Shown: positions 4,480 to 63,040, counted from the first letter of the stretch. The stretch is 64,000 nt of DNA from Anaeromyxobacter sp. (GCA_049840735.1 JASGJN010000021.1:256001-320000), one strand, 5' to 3'. Notes: generated by a model not told the origin, from the letters alone. Numbers and translations: made by a program.

Positions 4480-6064
4480 CGCCGCCTGGCCCTCGAGGCC
4501 GCGCCCGCCCGGCGGCCCTGGCGGTCGCCCTGCTGGTGGCGGCGGTGGCGGTTTGGCCCGCCGCCGCCTTCGCCGCCAGCAAGGCCGAGACCGCCGCGCT
4601 GGCGGCGCTGCGCGCGCTGGCCGACGAGGACGTGGAGGGCGCGCGCCGGGCGCTGCAGCCGTTCGAGCCGCTCGACGCCGGTCCGCCGCCATCCTCTACG
4701 CCGCCGGCGCGCTCCGCTTCCACGAGCAGCGCTACCCCGAGGCGCTCCAGCTGCTGGAGACGTCGGGCGCCGGCAGCGCCGAGTACGTCGCGCTGGCCCG
4801 CGCGGCGCAGGCGGTCACGAAGGACCACGTCCGCGCCGAGGGCGAGCACTTCGTGGTCTCCTGCCCGAAGGGCAAGGACGAGGTGCTGGTCCCCTACCTG
4901 CTCGACGCGCTGGAGCGCCAGCGCGCCGCGCTGGTGAAGGCGCTGGGGCCGGTGCCGCCGGGCAAGGTGACGGTCGAGCTGGTCAACGACGTGAAGCAGC
5001 TGGCGGCGCTCACCACGCTCAGCGAGGCGGAGGTCCGCACCAGCGGCACGGTGGCGGTGTCCAAGTTCAACAAGCTGATGATGCTGTCGCCCAAGGCGCT
5101 GCTGAAGGGCTACGACTGGCTGGACACCGCGGCGCACGAGTACACGCACACGGCGGTGACGGCCCGCACCCGCAACCGCGCGCCCATCTGGCTGCAGGAG
5201 GGGCTGGCCAAGTGGTTCGAGGCGGCCTGGCGCGGCGGCACCGACGCGCTCACGCCCTTCTCGGCGGCGCTGGTGAAGGACGCGGTGGCCTCCAGGTCGC
5301 TGGTCACCTTCCAGGAGATGCACCCCTCGCTGGCCAAGCTCCCCTCGCAGGAGCGGGCGGCGCTGGCCTACGCGCAGGTGGTGCTGGCCATGGAGCACCT
5401 GGTCCAGGCGCGCGGGCCGCAGGCGCTGGGGCGCCTCACCGGCGAGATCGGCGAGGGCAAGCCGGTGGAGACCGCCGTGGCCGACGCGGCCGGCGTCCCC
5501 TTCGACCGCTTCCTCGCCGACTGGAGGAAGCACATGGCCACCCGCCCGCTGCCGCGCGGCGGCGACCACGAGCTGCGCCGGCTGCGCTTCAAGGACGATC
5601 CGAAGCAGGCCGGGGGCGAGTGGTCGGAGATCGGCGACCAGGAGGCGCAGGGCTGGGCGCGGCTGGGTGAGATCTTCCGGGCGCGCGGGCGCTGGGGCGC
5701 GGCGCGGCAGGAGTACGCCAAGGCCTACCAGAAGGTGGGCGCGCGCATCCCCATCCTCTCGGGCCAGTACGCGCTGGCGGCCAGCATGTCCGGCGCCAAG
5801 CCGGAGGCGGAGAAGGTGCTGGGCGAGGCGCTGGCCTGGAACCCGGACTACCCCGCCTTGAACCTCCAGCTGGCCCGGCTGCTGCTGGACCGCGGCCAGC
5901 TGCAGCAGGCCCGCGACCACCTGCTGGCGGCCAACCGCCAGGACCCCTTCGACCCCGAGATCCACGCTGGCCTGTCCAAGGTGCTGGAGGCGCTGGGTGA
6001 CCCCGGAGGCGCCTCGCGGGAGGCCCGCTTCGCGAGGATACTCACCGGCCAGGAGACCCCATGA
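4476..6064 (+). CDS. Secreted TPR / peptidase MA-like (HExxH) protein; single-base frameshift near 4680
   Basis: Signal peptide in frame 4476 joins frame 4553, which carries AAHEYTH and PIWLQEGLA gluzincin motifs and C-terminal TPRs. Confidence 0.8.
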
Positions 6065-7089
6065 GCACGCCCACCGCGACCCCCCCGCCGCTGCCCGTCA
6101 ACCCGGAGGCCGACCTGCAGGCCGTGCACGAGCTGCACGACGCCCGGCGCATGATCCTCTCGGAGATCGAGAAGCGGATCGTGGGCCAGAAGGACGTGGT
6201 GGACTCGCTGCTGGTGGCGCTGTTCGCGCGCGGCCACTGCCTGTTCGTGGGCGTGCCCGGGCTGGCCAAGACCCTGCTCATCTCCACGGTGGCGGACGTC
6301 CTCGACCTCTCCTTCAACCGCATCCAGTTCACGCCGGACCTGATGCCCTCCGACATCACCGGCACCGACGTGCTGGAGGAGGACCACACCACCGGCCGCC
6401 GCGCCTTCCGCTTCGTGCGCGGCCCCATCTTCGCGAACCTGCTCCTGGCCGATGAGATCAACCGCACGCCGCCCAAGACGCAGGCGGCGCTGCTGCAGGC
6501 CATGCAGGAGTACCGGGTCACCGCCGGCGGCGAGACCTACCCGCTCGACCTGCCCTTCCTGGTCTTCGCCACCCAGAACCCCATCGAGCAGGAGGGGACC
6601 TACCCGCTCCCCGAGGCGCAGCTGGACCGGTTCATGTTCTACGTGAACGTGAGCTACCCCACCGCGCTGGAGGAGCTGGAGATCGTCCGCTCCACCACCG
6701 TCTCCAGCCGCCCGCCGCTCCACCGCGTCCTCTCCCCGCACAAGATCCGCGAGCTGCAGGACCTGGTGCTGCGCGTCCCCGCCGCCGACCACGTCATCAA
6801 GTACGCCGTCGAGCTGGTGCGCCGCACGCGCCCCGGCGAGCCGGGCGCGCCCGACTTCGTGAAGGACAACGTCTCCTGGGGCGCCGGTCCGCGCGCCAGC
6901 CAGTACCTGGTGCTGGGCGCCAAGAGCCGCGCCATCCTCGACGGCCGCATGGCCGCCAGCGAGGAGGACGTCCGCGCCCTGGCGCGCAACGTCCTCGTCC
7001 ACCGCGTCATCACCAACTTCCGCGCCGAGAGCGAGGGCGTCACCAGCCAGCAGATCGTGGAGCGGCTGGTGGAGAAGGTCAGGGTGTGA
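6061..7089 (+). CDS. moxR: MoxR family AAA+ ATPase
   Basis: GVPGLAKT, RIQFTPDLMPSDITG, DEINRTPPKTQAALL, ATQNPIEQEGTYPLPEAQLDRF. Confidence 0.97.
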   Translation: MSTPTATPPPLPVNPEADLQAVHELHDARRMILSEIEKRIVGQKDVVDSLLVALFARGHCLFVGVPGLAKTLLISTVADVLDLSFNRIQFTPDLMPSDITGTDVLEEDHTTGRRAFRFVRGPIFANLLLADEINRTPPKTQAALLQAMQEYRVTAGGETYPLDLPFLVFATQNPIEQEGTYPLPEAQLDRFMFYVNVSYPTALEELEIVRSTTVSSRPPLHRVLSPHKIRELQDLVLRVPAADHVIKYAVELVRRTRPGEPGAPDFVKDNVSWGAGPRASQYLVLGAKSRAILDGRMAASEEDVRALARNVLVHRVITNFRAESEGVTSQQIVERLVEKVRV

Positions 7090-7140
7090 GGGGCGCAGGT
7101 GGTCGCCTCGGCTCCGCGGCAGGGGCCGGTTCACCCGAAT

Positions 7141-7748
7141 CCGTTCGGGCTGAGTCCTTCGACTTCGCGCCCGCGGGGCGGGCGCTACGCTCAGGACGAG
7201 CGGAGTCGAAGCCCAGGCGCTGTCGGTCCCCGTTCATCCTTCGACTCCGGGCCCGGAGAGTCGGAGGCGGCCGGGACGGAGCCCGGGCCCTACGCTCAGG
7301 ACGAACGGGATGCGAACGGCGCACGGGCCCAGGTGGCAGCTCCGGTCGGGCAGAGCGCAGCGGCAGCGGAGCGGCCGCGGAGTCGAAGCCCAGGTCGGCA
7401 CCGGGACCAGCAGGCTGTCGGTCCCCGTTCATCCTTCGACTCCGGGCCCGGAGAGTCGGAGGCGGCCGGGACCGAGCCCGGGCCCTACGCTCAGGACGAA
7501 CGGGATGCGAACGGCGCACGGGCCCAGGTGGCAGCTCCGGTCGGGCTGAGCGTAGTGGCCTGGCAGGCGAATCCGTTCGGGCTGAGCGTAGCGGCCGCGC
7601 AGCGGCCGCGGAGTCGAAGCCCAGGGATCGGCCAGGGAGCGGAAAAGGGCCGTGATACGGACCTGGGTCCGCGGTACGGACCCCATCCGTTCGCCCTGAG
7701 CGTAGCCGCCGTCCGCCAGGACGGCGGCGAAGTCGAAGGGGCGAACGG
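7141..7748. repeat. REP-like palindromic element cluster upstream of the GIY-YIG gene (about 8 copies, one nested pair, one ~135 bp duplication at 195 bp spacing)
   Basis: Repeated CCGTTCGNNCTGAGCGTAG...GAGTCGAAG and its reverse complement CTTCGACT...CTACGCTCAGGACGAACGG. Confidence 0.92.
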
Positions 7749-7785
7749 GATCCGCCTTCGCACGGTTCTTGAACTGCTCCGAGGC

Positions 7786-8815
7786 ATGAAGCCCTTCTTC
7801 GTCTACATGCTGGAGTGCGCCGACGGCACCTACTACACGGGCCACACCGAGGATCTCGAGGCGCGCCTCGCCGAGCACCAGGCCGGCGAGACGCCGGGGT
7901 ACACGAAGAAGCGCCGCCCGGTCGAGCTGGTGTGGTGCGCCGAGTTCGCCCGGCGGGACGAGGCGCTCGAGCGGGAACTCCAGATCAAGGGCTGGACGCG
8001 GGCCAAGAAGCAGGCGCTCATCGAGGAGGACTGGGGTGAGATCAGGCGGCTCGCGCGAGGGCCTGACCGCAAGCTGCGACCCCGTTCATCCTTCGACTTC
8101 GCTTGCCCTGAGCGTAGCGCCGCCCCGGCGGCGCGGAGCCGAAGGGCTCAGGACGAACGGGATACGAACGGCTCGCGGGCCCCGGGAGCAGATCCGTTCG
8201 GGCTGAGCGTAGCGGCCGCGGAGCGGCCGCGGAGTCGAAGCCCAGGCGCTGTCGGTCCCCGTTCATCCTTCGACTTCGGGCCCGGAGCGTCAGCGGCAGG
8301 CGGGACCAGGCCCGGGCCCTACGCTCAGGACGAACGGGATACGAACGGCTCGCGGGCCCCGGGAGCAGATCCGTTCGGGCTGAGCGTAGCGGCCGCGGAG
8401 CGGCCGCGGAGTCGAAGCCCGGGCGCTGTCGGTCCCCGTTCATCCTTCGACTTCGGGCCCGGAGCGTCAGCGGCAGGTGGGACCGAGCCCGGGCCCTACG
8501 CTCAGGACGAACGGGATACGAACGGCTCGCGGGCCCCGGGAGCAGATCCGTTCGGGCTGAGCGTAGCGGCCGCGGAGCGGCCGCGGAGTCGAAGCCCGGG
8601 CGCTGTCGGTCCCCGTTCATCCTTCGACTTCGGGCCCGGAGCGTCAGCGGCAGGTGGGACCGAGCCCGGGCCCTACGCTCAGGACGAACGGGATACGAAC
8701 GGCTCGCGGGCCCCGGGAGCGGATCCGTTCGGGCTTAGCGTAGCGGCCGCGGAGCGGCCGCGGAGTCGAAGCCCGGGCGCTGACCAGCGTCGAAGCCCAG
8801 GGAGTCACCGGAACC

Positions 8816-8823
<8 letters not shown>
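7786..8823 (+). CDS. GIY-YIG nuclease (small YhbQ/UPF0213-like domain, ~7786-8075); the ORF reads on through the 177 bp repeat array
   Basis: MKPFFVYMLECADGTYYTGHTEDLEARLAEH...ALERELQIKGWTRAKK contains the VY/YTG motifs, conserved Arg and catalytic Glu. First in-frame stop is 8821-8823. Confidence 0.9.
8081..8800. repeat. Four tandem 177 bp units, each an inverted REP doublet (REPIN-like)
   Basis: GTTCATCC recurs at 8084, 8261, 8438 and 8615 (exact 177 bp period). Confidence 0.95.
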
Positions 8824-9719
<896 letters not shown>

Positions 9720-9723
<4 letters not shown>

Positions 9724-12052: not shown

Positions 12053-13151
12053 ATGCGGCCCAGCAGCCTCGATCAGGACGTCGCCAGCCTCTTCTGCGTC
12101 GGCTTCCACGGTCAATCCCCGTCCCTCGAGGTCCTGGACCTCATCCGCCGCGGTGTCCACGGCGTCATCCTCTTCGCCCGCAACGTGGGCGAGGCCGAGC
12201 AGGTGGCCGGCCTGGTGGCCGACCTGAAGCGGGCGGCCCGGCGGCCGCTGCTCGTGTCGATCGACCAGGAGGGCGGCCGGGTGGCGCGGCTGCGCGCCCG
12301 CCACGGCTTCACCGAGGTCCCGCCCATGCGCGCCATCGGCCAGACCGGCGACGAGCTGCTGGCGCGGCAGGTGGGCGGGCTGCTCGGGCGCGAGCTGCGC
12401 GCGGTGGGCATCGACCAGGACTATGCGCCCTGCGTGGACGTGGACACCAACCCGCAGAACCCCGTCATCGGCGATCGCTCCTTCTCGCGCGACCCGGGAC
12501 AGGTGGGCTGGCTGGGCGCGGCGCTGGCGCAGGGGCTCCAGGGCGCCGGCGTGGCTGCCTGCGCCAAGCACTTCCCCGGCCACGGCGACACCAGCCAGGA
12601 CTCGCACAAGGACCTGCCGCGCCTCCCGCACACGCTGGAGCGGCTGCGCCGGGTGGAGCTGCCGCCCTTCGAGGCGCTGGCCCGGGCCGGCGTGGCCTCG
12701 ATGATGACCGCGCACGTGGTCTTCGAGGCCATCGAATCCGTCGCGCCCGGCCACCATCTCGCCGCCGGTGATCCGCCTCCTGCGCGAGGAGGTCGGCTTC
12801 GAGGGCTGCTGCATCTCCGACGATCTGGAGATGAAGGCGGTGGCCGAGCACGTGCCGCTGGAGGAGGCCGCCCCCGGCGCGGTGCTGGCTGGCGTCGACG
12901 CGCTCCTGGTATGCCACACCGCCGCCGTGCAGCACCGGGCCATCGACCTGGTGCGCCGCGCCGTGGAGGACGGCCGGATTCCCCGCGAGCGGCTCGCCCA
13001 GGCGAGGGCCCGCGTGGCCAAGCTGCTGACCTGGGCCGGCCCGCCGCCTGATCCCCGTCAAGCGCAGCAGCTGCTGCGCACGCCGGAGCACCTCGCCCTC
13101 GCCGCGCGCATCCCCCCGCTGGCCACCGGCGAGGACCCTACCGCCGCCTAG
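12053..13151 (+). CDS. nagZ: Beta-N-acetylhexosaminidase (GH3); +1 frameshift at 12734-12738
   Basis: GVILFARN, DQEGGRV, KHFPGHGD..DSH, SDDLEM. Removing one A restores IDPSRPATIS. Confidence 0.92.
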
Positions 13152-14368: not shown

Positions 14369-14973
14369 GGGCTTCGACTCCGCGAGCCCTGCGGGCTCGC
14401 TACGCTCAGCCCGAACGGCGGTGGACCACCCGTTCGCCTGCGCCCAGTCCGAACGGTGGTGGACCACCCGTTCGCCTACGCCCAGTCCGGACAGCGGTGG
14501 ACCACCCGTTCGCCTACGCTCAGGCCGAACGGCGGTGGACCACCCGTTCGCCTACGCTCAGGCCGAACGGCGGTGGACCACCCGTTCGCCTACGCCCAGG
14601 CCGAACGGCGGTGGACCACCCGTTCGCCTACGCCCAGTCCGGACGGCGGTGGACCACCCGTTCGCCTACGCCCAGTCCGAACGGTGGTGGACCATCCGTT
14701 CGCCTACGCTCGGCCCGAACGGCGGTGGACCACCCGTTCGCCTACGCCCAGTCCGGACAGCGGCGGACCACCCGTTCGCCTACGCCCAGTCCGGACAGCG
14801 GTGGACCACCCGTTCGCCTACGCCCAGTCCGGACAGCGGTGGACCACCCGTTCGCCTACGCCCAGTCCGGACAGCGGTGGACCACCCGTTCGCCTGCGCC
14901 CAGTCCGGACAGCGGTGGACCACCCGTTCGCCCTGAGCGTAGCCGCGGCGAAGCCGCGGCGGAGTCGAAGGGC
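14369..14973. repeat. Inverted REP pair enclosing 13 tandem 38 bp units
   Basis: GTGGACCACCCGTTCG recurs every 38 bp from 14421 to 14915; full REPs at 14369-14418 and 14924-14973. Confidence 0.95.
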
Positions 14974-21342: not shown

Positions 21343-21586
21343 GGCCTTCGACTCCGGGCTCGCCTGCGGCGAGCCCTACGCTCAGGCCGAACGGGGTCGT
21401 GGCCTGAGGCTGAACGGGGGCGTGGGCACAGGCTGAGCGGGGGCGTGGGCACAGGCTGAGCGGGGGCGTGGCCACAGGCTGAACGGGGACGTGGGCCCAG
21501 TCCGAACGGTCGGGCCCAGGCCGAACGGCCAGTGGACCGTTCGCCCTGAGCGTAGCCGCGGCGACGCCGCGGCGGAGTCGAAGGGC
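21343..21586. repeat. Inverted REP pair enclosing about 6 degenerate 23 bp units, between convergent genes
   Basis: REPs at 21343-21394 and 21537-21586; the CAGGCTGA(A/G)CGG-like unit recurs every ~23 bp. Confidence 0.88.
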
Positions 21587-24145: not shown

Positions 24146-24201
24146 CCGGTCGTGCTTCGACTCCGCGGGCCCTGCGGGCCCGCTACGCTCAGCATGACCG
24201 G
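24146..24201. repeat. Single REP-family element between the amylase paralogues
   Basis: CCGGTCGTGCTTCGACTCC-GCGGGCCC TGC GGGCCCGC-TACGCTCAGCATGACCGG. Confidence 0.88.
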
Positions 24202-24351
24202 GGTGGGGGCGGCAGGCTCAGGGCGAGCGGATTGCGCCGGCTCGAGCTCCCGGCGACCGGAGTGAACTCCCTGCGACCCCGTATCGCCCCTGCGTGAACC
24301 TGGCGCGCGGGCACGGGTGGGCTACCCTGTGCGCTCACCCTGGAGCCGCCC

Positions 24352-36968: not shown

Positions 36969-37214
36969 GGGCTTCGACTCCGCGAGCCCAGCGGGCTCGC
37001 TACGCTCAGCCCGAACGGTCCGGGGACCGTTCGTCCTGAGGGCAGGGCCCGGGGCCACAGGAACCGTTCGTCCTGAGCGTAGCGCCCGCGGAGCGGGCGC
37101 GGAGTCGAAGGACAGGGATTTCCGCGGTCGTCCAGCGGTCCATCGTCGTGGTTCGACTCCGGGCCGGACGGAGGGCCGGCCGGCGCGAGCCGGCCCTGCG
37201 CTCATCACGGACGG
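36969..37214. repeat. REP cluster between convergent genes (2 full copies, 1 partial, 1 degenerate)
   Basis: Elements at 36969-37018, 37027-37040, 37064-37113 and ~37148-37214. Confidence 0.88.
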
Positions 37215-46422: not shown

Positions 46423-47120
46423 CGCTCGCGGAGATTCCTGGGCTTCGACTCCGCGAGCCCTGCGGGCTCGCTACGCTCAGCCCGAACGGATCTGCGACGG
46501 TACCGAGGAGCCCTGCGACCGGGTCATCGCTCGCGGAGAATCCTGGGCTTCGACTCCGCGAGCCCTGCGGGCTCGCTACGCTCAGCCCGAACGGATCTGC
46601 GACGGTACCGAGGAGCCCTGCGACCGGGTCATCGCTCGCGGAGAATCCTGGGCTTCGACTCCGCGAGCCCTGCGGGCTCGCTACGCTCAGCCCGAACGGA
46701 TCTGCGACCGGTACCGAGGAGCCCTGCGACCGGGTCATCGCTCGCGGAGATTCCTGGGCTTCGACTCCGCGAGCCCTGCGGGCTCGCTACGCCCAGCCCG
46801 AACGGATCTGCCACCGTATCGAGGAGCCCTACGACCGGCTCATCGCTCGCGGAGATTCCTGGGCTTCGACTCCGCGAGCCCTGCGGGCTCGCTACGCCCA
46901 GCCCGAACGGATCTGCGACGGTACCGAGGACCCTCCGACCGGCTCATCGCTCGCGGAGATTCCTGGGCTTCGACTCCGCGAGCCCTGCGGGCTCGCTACG
47001 CTCAGCCCGAACGGATTCGCGACCGGTACCGAGGAGCCCTACGACCGGTTCGGGGGGATTCTGCAATCCGTTCGGCCTGAGCGTAGGGCCCGCCCTCCGG
47101 CGGGCCCGGAGTCGAAGGCC
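46419..47120. repeat. Six tandem 104-106 bp units, each with one REP, closed by one inverted REP
   Basis: TCATCGCTCG at 46419, 46524, 46629, 46735, 46840 and 46944; inverted copy at 47068-47120. Confidence 0.95.
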
Positions 47121-52434: not shown

Positions 52435-52695
52435 CCCGTTCATCCTTCGACTCCGGGCCCGGTGGTCCAGCCCGCGCACGCCGCGCCGGGCCCTACGCTC
52501 AGGACGAGCGGAGTTGACGCCGGCCGGCGCACGGATTCACCCCCGGTCACCCTGGGCGTAGGCCTGCCCTACGCTCAGGACGAACGGGGTTGACGCCGGC
52601 CGGCGCACGGGTTCACCCCCGGTCACCCTGAGCGTAGGCCCCGTCATGCGTCGCGCGGACCCGGCTGGCGGGCCGGAGTCGAAGGGCGACCGGGG
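52435..52695. repeat. Inverted REP pair with an internal 76 bp duplication, between convergent genes
   Basis: GCCCTACGCTCAGGACGA at 52490 and 52566; terminal elements at ~52435-52511 and ~52618-52695. Confidence 0.88.
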
Positions 52696-62857: not shown

Positions 62858-63040
62858 GCCCTTCGGCTTCGCCTGCCCTGAGCGCAGCGGACGCCAAGCG
62901 GACGCGAAGTCGATGGGCTCAGGGCGAACGGTCATGCCGGCACCGTTCGGGCTGAGCGTGTGAGAACCGGGGCGCGCGGTCATCCCGGCACCGTTCGGGC
63001 TGAGCGTAGCGAGCCCGCAGGGCTCGCGGAGTCGAAGCCC
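62858..63040. repeat. REP cluster (nested pair, 48 bp partial duplication, one full copy)
   Basis: Nested element at 62858-62931; CACCGTTCGGGCTGAGCGT at 62941 and 62989. Confidence 0.88.

Follow-up and report, generated by a model that had tools for sequence, protein, structure and literature searches.

A small GIY-YIG nuclease gene that lies among crowded copies of a hairpin repeat raises the question of whether this nuclease is the enzyme that serves the repeat. The gene is found in a stretch of 64,000 nucleotides from Anaeromyxobacter sp. (GCA_049840735.1 JASGJN010000021.1:256001-320000; hereafter the window), which belongs to a 6.67-Mb assembly of about 74% GC and 94% completeness. What makes or spreads REPs that lack a RAYT has been an open question since CGTC REPs were reported, in the available text of that study, without a dedicated transposase (Di Nocera et al. 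2013, PMC3733652). The work on Ssn raised GIY-YIG candidates, and its available text describes tests of cleavage and transformation only (Chenal et al. 2025, PMC11893778). For the window, the initial annotation proposed that the repeats are served, spread and amplified by a GIY-YIG enzyme instead of a RAYT. The comparative data indicate that, as far as association is concerned, the hairpin repeat that dominates the genome does have the nuclease gene as its dedicated partner.

The cassette, its repeat and its protein

The cassette sits, where the initial annotation had placed it, between a moxR-type AAA+ ATPase gene (6061..7089, + strand; Pfam AAA_3, 7.5e-61) and a DUF58 gene (8816..9723, +; Pfam DUF58, 3.4e-43). 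From left to right, the junction holds a group of upstream hairpin elements that point both ways (7141..7619), which includes a 195-bp duplication and has no stops in the nuclease frame counted from a GTG at 7099; a left flanking element (7687..7748, +; DNA fold z -5.0); the GIY-YIG domain (P0001; 7786..8079, +; PF01541, 4.5e-19); an inverted right flanking element (8081..8160, -; fold z -2.8); and a tandem array of 3.6 x 177 bp (8146..8782), whose units are 98% alike and contain one + and one - element each. The two flanking elements are oppositely oriented as described before, fold as long hairpins and turn their 5' tags away from the gene. The earlier estimate of about 16 copies at this junction agrees with 16 CTGAG/CTTAG half-sites in 7090-8823 (9 +, 7 -), 13-14 of them in complete elements. 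The gene itself was rightly recognized at 7786, and its proposed end at 8075 was wrong: there is no stop codon at 8075-8080, and the frame from ATG 7786 continues through the 177-bp array to a TGA at 8821-8823, overlapping by 8 nt the DUF58 gene with its ATG at 8816. The full ORF (7786..8823, +) thus encodes 345 aa, the domain being followed by a tail of 59-aa units that the repeats encode.

About 20 further copies had been noted at seven other loci in the window, which match the 21 tag half-sites found there (15 complete). Specifically, these loci comprise a non-coding, tag-inward pair around a tandem run of 14 x 38 bp derived from the tag side (14372..14970), a pair with a tag-side 23-bp array (21346..21583), a single element (24155..24230, -), a tag-inward pair (36972..37110), a 105-bp tandem array of elements that terminates in an inverted copy (46443..47117), a pair with a 76-bp duplication in between (52445..52684) and an element whose tag side carries partial copies (62931..63037). 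Separately, the DUF58 gene lacks one base in a C run near 8931 (8925-8935), likely an assembly error, and a single-base frameshift in a glycoside-hydrolase-like gene (12053-13151) suggests a homopolymer assembly error of the same kind. Sequencing runs share at most 13% of the sequence words, and four that were compared come from other organisms.

Across the genome, a loose repeat pattern has 511 matches, compared with 47 for a reversed control, and there are 444 strict copies. They begin sharply at CCGTTC on the 5' side; an outer stem leads to GAG, a variable inner hairpin follows, and CGA then precedes the second half of the outer stem. GAG and CGA are invariant in all 444, these cores being part of the search pattern. 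The hairpin is maintained by compensatory changes, as two variable outer-stem pairs are Watson-Crick in 311/324 and 317/324 distinct copies (shuffle maxima 138 and 271); T-G occurs at one of these pairs in 4 of 444 copies and is not common at the other. In other taxa the inner part goes down to 5-6 nt, the tag, stem and GAG/CGA are retained, and the T and C preceding the stem are conserved at 92% and 85%. The tag takes the forms CCGTTC, CGCTC and CGTC, resembling CGTC/NTS repeats. Copies are mostly non-coding (23/316 inside crudely called genes), and a same-strand gene usually lies 5' of them (183 vs 49). Replication-strand bias is weak here (85 vs 64). Most close pairs are heterodimers with their tags turned inward, and 27 of the 90 close pairs are of this kind with a 9-11 bp spacer. 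Rfam gave no match in window positions 6900-9000 at E up to 1. Identity with GTAG-type REPs was considered and rejected: the conserved end is CCGTTC, and GTAG occurs only within the loop in this genus and is absent from most other taxa.

GIY-YIG domains hydrolyse DNA. P0001 consists of a single such domain, with PF01541 as its only match and no second domain in its 98 aa. Y7, Y17, R27, H31, E64 and W70 are invariant in 65 aligned homologues (of 120 listed), a GIY-YIG fold is predicted with a pLDDT of 91, and the closest solved relatives, by sequence (1.6e-15) and by fold, are the UPF0213 proteins PDB 1ZG2 and 1YWL. NCBIfam assigns no family to P0001. P0001 is itself part of the clade profile, and its 150 bits therefore do not count as independent; independent scores are 144 bits for L465 and 132 for L466. 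The gene shows pN < pS in 5/5 pairs and is single-copy in most carrier genomes. Close matches on plasmids are few (3 of 63 records, on large replicons), and none were found in phages. The genome's two further GIY-YIG matches, a housekeeping UPF0213-like gene and UvrC, lack repeat flanks. One homologue locus (L053) carries a tandem pair of nuclease domains in a single frame ahead of a methyltransferase.

Gene and repeat are paired in at least six phyla

The pairing of gene and repeat is general and occurs in at least six bacterial phyla. Among the best 80 of 542 homologue loci, which span the host's phylum together with Pseudomonadota, Chloroflexota, Bacteroidota, Latescibacterota and Cloacimonadota, the motif lies within 300 nt in 69/80 and on both sides in 57, compared with 3/69 and 0/69 in distal control windows. 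A structure-based element definition was applied to 120 distinct loci (identical proteins dropped), 119 of which have full flanks. It places an element within 200 nt at 115/119 and on both sides at 89/119, with 67/89 tag-outward; the distal controls give 19/107 and 1/107. The initial annotation had suggested a comparison with YhbQ-like genes, and the enrichment is clear: housekeeping UPF0213-like paralogues have an element at 2/14 loci and on both sides at 0/14, and Ssn-like genes have an element of the P0001 type at 2/28 and on both sides at 1/28. The 120 loci represent about 61 different gene neighbourhoods; locus and genome counts include kin and hence are not independent. An even draw of 301 Alphaproteobacteria yielded 22 new loci, all 22 of which carry the repeat, 19 on both sides. 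In 7 genomes with two nuclease genes, each gene lies mostly beside its own repeat variant; because kin share repeat variants, this suggests gene-repeat co-evolution rather than showing it.

Repeat abundance follows gene presence as well, as the initial annotation had expected, with exceptions. In a draw of 251 genomes from the phylum, 21 match the nuclease alignment, 15 of them with a gene of the P0001 clade and 6 with a housekeeping-like one. All 15 carriers have between 126 and 1205 pattern matches, and 7/236 non-carriers reach 126, a threshold that was set after the data had been seen. Among 61 relatives, the repeat-to-control ratio is 2.49 in carriers vs 0.96 in others. The seven repeat-rich genomes without a detected gene include the single-contig G023 (220 matches) and G527 (771), and a Pfam-family search of 5 of the 7 found no P0001-clade gene. 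Many copies in G527 are near-identical and form tag-outward pairs about 90 bp apart (loci L282-L311), and neither a P0001-clade gene nor a Y1 transposase was detected in its assembly. Since its contigs are often broken at the repeat, a nuclease gene might have been missed by the assembly. The genome-level link is weaker in Alphaproteobacteria, where 8/20 carriers vs 6/281 others have at least 70 matches (hand count).

No competing enzyme emerged from the searches for one. The genome has 6 Y1_Tnp and 11 RAYT-like matches, all under the RAYT cut-off and all outside the window, so that the earlier statement of no transposase in the window holds for Y1/RAYT-type HUH enzymes, the only kind searched. 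None of the 11 RAYT-like matches is repeat-flanked, the nearest element being 1,984-34,489 bp away. The repeat-rich genomes G004, G527, G573 and G575 have no Y1 match, and that of a fifth is unflanked. Inspection by eye of 49 close element pairs revealed no other recognisable enzyme gene bracketed by them. The proposal that the GIY-YIG gene rather than a RAYT is the partner of the repeats is thus upheld by cross-phylum flanking, by abundance, by empty junctions (below) and by the more than 1.9 kb that separate every RAYT-like match from the nearest element. Three HUH/Y1-like genes that are almost identical and share an upstream leader (G000:C7:245241-245642, C12:95690-96091 and C2:170791-171042, the C2 copy frameshifted) are likely a small IS-like family unrelated to the repeat.

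Relation to Ssn, REPtrons and other repeat families

The nearest published counterpart is Ssn, in which cd10448 GIY-YIG genes are flanked by NTS/SRM hairpins. According to the available text, SsnA cuts single-stranded DNA upstream of its hairpin, needs 3 nt before the stem and ignores RNA; the sole in vivo role shown there is lower transformation in N. meningitidis, not repeat spread, and the authors liken the layout to IS200/IS605 and REP-associated transposases (PMC11893778). As this comparison is published, the idea behind the initial annotation already exists in the literature, put forward hypothetically for a different clade. In literature outside subscription journals, only the Ssn paper was found on GIY-YIG genes with hairpin repeats, and the pair of P0001 clade and repeat was not found described.

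P0001 resembles Ssn in being a single-domain GIY-YIG protein of about 95 aa whose gene lies between its own oriented hairpin repeats; tag-outward flanks also occur at several Ssn-like loci. Its catalytic Tyr/Tyr/Glu occupy positions like those of SsnA Y6/Y17/E64, matched by motif and number, and its repeat resembles NTS in an unpaired 5' tag ending in TC and in hundreds of genome-wide copies. Unlike NTS/SRM, however, the repeat has a GAG/CGA internal loop and a variable inner stem, and unlike Ssn, the P0001 clade often reads through or fuses into the next host gene. Trees and profiles also place P0001 outside the SsnA/cd10448 clade: it falls in a separate tree group, the Ssn-like group has a support of 99/99 (95/99 without P0001), and P0001 scores 61 bits with the Ssn-like and 87 bits with the UPF0213-like profile. 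The SRM-flanked group is anchored by the NTS-flanked gene of A. lipoferum 4B (145 vs 64 bits), one of the 29 genomes that define Ssn in the available text (PMC11893778). Trees favour neither Ssn nor UPF0213 firmly as the sister of the clade: the grouping has a support of 65/25, the alternative has an AU p of 0.49, and P0001 as sister of the Ssn group is not rejected either (p 0.29).

The SRM pattern is found at 0/80 and 0/119 P0001-clade loci, nowhere in the window and at 9/28 Ssn-like loci. Only these 9/28 Ssn-like genes match SRM within 200 nt, and many have hairpin flanks that the published pattern misses, as seen at the Ssn-like loci L159, L163, L166, L169, L162, L167, L168, L172, L176, L209 and L221, so that Ssn-repeat pairing is wider than counted. 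E. arenosclerae is listed in the available text with 33 SRMs vs 31 expected, its SsnA being 'no' by tblastn and strict cd10448 and 'yes' by a loose PSSM (PMC11893778). A genome of this species, whose strain may differ from the published one, has one P0001-clade gene, no Ssn-like gene and 177 pattern matches.

In its organization, the system resembles the REPtron and RAYT-REPIN arrangement, with an enzyme gene between inverted repeats, many non-autonomous singles, heterodimers and tandem arrays; variant-specific pairing and one shared site within a genus are further REPtron-like traits. Unlike in a REPtron, the enzyme is GIY-YIG and not an HUH/Y1 tyrosine transposase, and the repeat is not GTAG-tagged. 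RAYTs, moreover, are described in the available text as vertically inherited, with trees congruent with those of their hosts (Bertels and Rainey, 10.1101/2021.07.10.451892), whereas at the shared site the P0001 gene and its hosts have discordant trees. CGTC REPs, as far as their description is available, share with the present repeat an unpaired 5' tag (CGTC in some variants, CGTTC/CGCTC in most), a stem starting with a purine, dimers and the lack of a tyrosine transposase nearby. The repeat's typical translations are unlike the REP-encoded peptides in the available text of that study (PMC3733652), a comparison made at the level of peptides, and the repeat may yet belong to one of the four published CGTC families. 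The UPF0213/YhbQ-YazA paralogue, finally, is near-universal, shorter, without W70 and the C-terminal DW helix, and not repeat-flanked; it falls in a tree group separate from P0001, and the window's genome has both genes. Taken together, the P0001 system is organized like a REPtron, is predicted to work like Ssn and is a member of neither as defined. The P0001 clade is likely a second hairpin-repeat nuclease family, parallel to Ssn. New with it are the 5'-side tandem duplications, the likely gene swap at one junction and the open frame into the next gene, which are described below.

Duplications, junction turnover and a candidate mechanism

Tandem arrays that abut the elements lie almost exclusively on the tag side. 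Under a filter symmetric for both sides, and with arrays of whole elements excluded, 40 of 316 elements have an array on the 5' side and 1 has one on the 3' side; tag-inward pairs share an array, so that the 40 cases are not independent. The polarity is also seen in singletons (14 vs 1 of 184), where at least 60 nt are non-coding on both sides (11 vs 1 of 96), in G527 (6 vs 0 of 26 elements) and, weakly, in three genus relatives (3 vs 1 of 34). No arrays were found on either side of 28 alphaproteobacterial and 29 Chloroflexota/gammaproteobacterial elements, and array ends mark no single cut position, ranging from -9 to +76 around the tag. As an indirect trace, the 5'-side arrays may be a footprint of cutting, on the same side on which SsnA cuts. 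Since G527 has polar arrays, the polarity needs no detectable nuclease gene.

The junction has turned over within the genus. Among 30 genus genomes with the moxR-DUF58 junction, 12 carry the nuclease gene, 11 have a gap of at most 21 bp, 3 have repeat remnants only, 3 carry a different cassette and 1 has other hairpins; the empty site that the initial annotation had proposed to look for thus exists in relatives. G004 is a thirteenth carrier, and 13 genus members share the one site. Tight empty sites occur next to occupied sister genomes, and presence is scattered on the moxR tree with 9 changes (207/500 shuffles as low). Identities at the moxR and nuclease genes are 96% vs 72% (nucleotide) for G010/G015, 94% vs 71% for G033/G007, and 93% vs 92% for G015/G018; the nuclease tree rejects G010+G015 (AU p 0.0002). 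Nuclease and host divergence are partly congruent (Spearman 0.33 over 66 pairs), with two close host groups in conflict. Gaps, scattered presence and the mismatch of moxR and nuclease identities therefore point to a cassette that is lost and likely re-acquired or swapped at this one junction, the swap having probably involved closely related hosts. The different cassette, at L142:1031-1363 (G025), L141 (G035) and L147 (G019), is a reverse-strand 23S rRNA-IVP four-helix-bundle gene (PF05635, 1.9e-20) with 6-bp tandem repeats on both sides; a second repeat-flanked small gene, then, uses the moxR-DUF58 site.

At the window's junction the nuclease frame contains 0 stops, the two alternative frames 15 and 8. 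The same frame is stop-free over a repeat linker of 41-748 nt at 11/11 DUF58 junctions, the window's included, its stop falling between -8 and +11 nt relative to the DUF58 start in all 11; the other frames have 22 and 28 stops and are open in 6/11 and 5/11. Elsewhere the nuclease is fused in frame to genes that we take to be TrmJ-like (18/20 loci) and MeaB-like (5/8), the former label agreeing with an 'RNA methyltransferase' annotation and an Atlas cluster name. Such fusions through a repeat-encoded linker were seen at L017, L022, L024-L029, L031, L036, L038, L052, L053, L056, L152, L154 and L222, and also at L012, L013, L015, L016 and L020; single-case partners (L035; L039) are presumably a pseudouridine synthase and a tRNA deaminase. 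The open frame may reflect selection against polarity on the host operon, and read-through would keep that operon translationally coupled. 'GIY-YIG / RNA methyltransferase' fusion annotations are explained as cassette read-through.

The explanation that we favour, and regard as probably correct, is an Ssn-like nuclease dedicated to the repeat, whose nicks would feed duplications and likely new copies. By analogy with SsnA, P0001 would bind the repeat in single-stranded DNA and place its nick a few nucleotides before the conserved CCGTTC tag, on the 5' side. Host repair would then turn nicks into local duplications and, likely, new copies, and dispersal to new sites would proceed through repair or recombination, not through enzyme-catalysed strand transfer. 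That P0001 binds and cuts the repeat as its cognate single-stranded DNA nuclease seems very probable from the parallel with SsnA; that it also drives the spread of the repeat, as the initial annotation had it, is a closer call, which we judge to lean slightly in favour.

Four other readings have to be weighed against this one. The nuclease could be domesticated, as a form of single-stranded DNA restriction or recombination control: it would cut at the repeat like SsnA and benefit the host by trimming single strands that come in or recombine, the repeats spreading through other host processes and being kept by selection. The sole in vivo role in the available text on SsnA is of this type (PMC11893778), and the single-copy gene in core operons, pN < pS in all five pairs, rarity on plasmids, lack of close phage matches and existence of repeat-rich genomes without the gene all suit it. 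Patchy presence (15/251), some 61 neighbourhoods, allele exchange and self-bracketing nevertheless fit a mobile partnership better, and host control alone leaves the tag-side duplications unexplained. We consider it rather unlikely as a full account; it and a repeat-dedicated, duplication-feeding nuclease are not mutually exclusive. Were the enzyme a transposase of new chemistry, able by itself to excise and insert the cassette or pairs of repeats in a true autonomous element, the tag-outward flanks (67/89), the tight empty sites beside occupied sisters and the tag-inward pairs with 9-11 bp spacers (27/90), which resemble circle junctions, would find a ready place. To our knowledge, however, GIY-YIG hydrolysis involves no covalent intermediate and no strand-transfer step, P0001 has no second domain, most carriers have one copy per genome, and 13 genus members share one site, which makes such an element very unlikely.

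Action at the RNA level, with repeats serving in transcripts as stabilisers or processing sites and the protein binding or cutting RNA to regulate its own message, would account for gene-oriented (183 vs 49) and mostly non-coding (23/316 in called genes) elements. It is highly improbable given variable stem pairs that are nearly all Watson-Crick, the lack of an Rfam match, duplications that are polar at the DNA level and an SsnA that, in the available text, ignores RNA (PMC11893778). Least credible is coincidence, in which a repair nuclease of the usual YhbQ-like type happens to lie in a hot spot of repeats that are spread by a RAYT. UPF0213 proteins are indeed the closest solved relatives, and the genome does have its 11 RAYT-like matches; yet none of these is flanked, the pairing holds in about 61 neighbourhoods, and the housekeeping paralogue exists apart from P0001, in this genome as in relatives, and has no repeat flanks. 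Flank comparison and RAYT-element distances largely refute this reading.

If the favoured explanation of a repeat-dedicated, nicking nuclease is followed further, small GIY-YIG nucleases might constitute a second, HUH-independent engine of REP-type repeats with at least two families (Ssn/CGTC and the GAG/CGA-loop clade), in which nicking on the 5' side of the hairpin would lead host repair to amplify the tag side and to seed further copies, and the cassette would re-invade conserved operon junctions, hidden from selection by read-through or fusion into the following host gene. We offer this broader view tentatively and stop short of calling it probable. A second clade with its own repeat does show that GIY-YIG/repeat pairing is general, and the 5'-side duplications provide a genomic read-out that is directly testable with a catalytic mutant. 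The clade additionally represents a large untapped set of predicted sequence-specific single-stranded DNA nucleases whose target has a free inner stem.

Two further arrangements of the repeat were observed. Long same-strand runs of single elements occur in G067 (C1, C2) and G066 (C1), with about 30 in a row in G067; replication direction could be their cause, the skew in 20-kb samples being too noisy to tell. The genome's largest array (G000:C19:65714-67757) comprises 9.5 x 217 bp with 18 elements and no enzyme gene between the copies.
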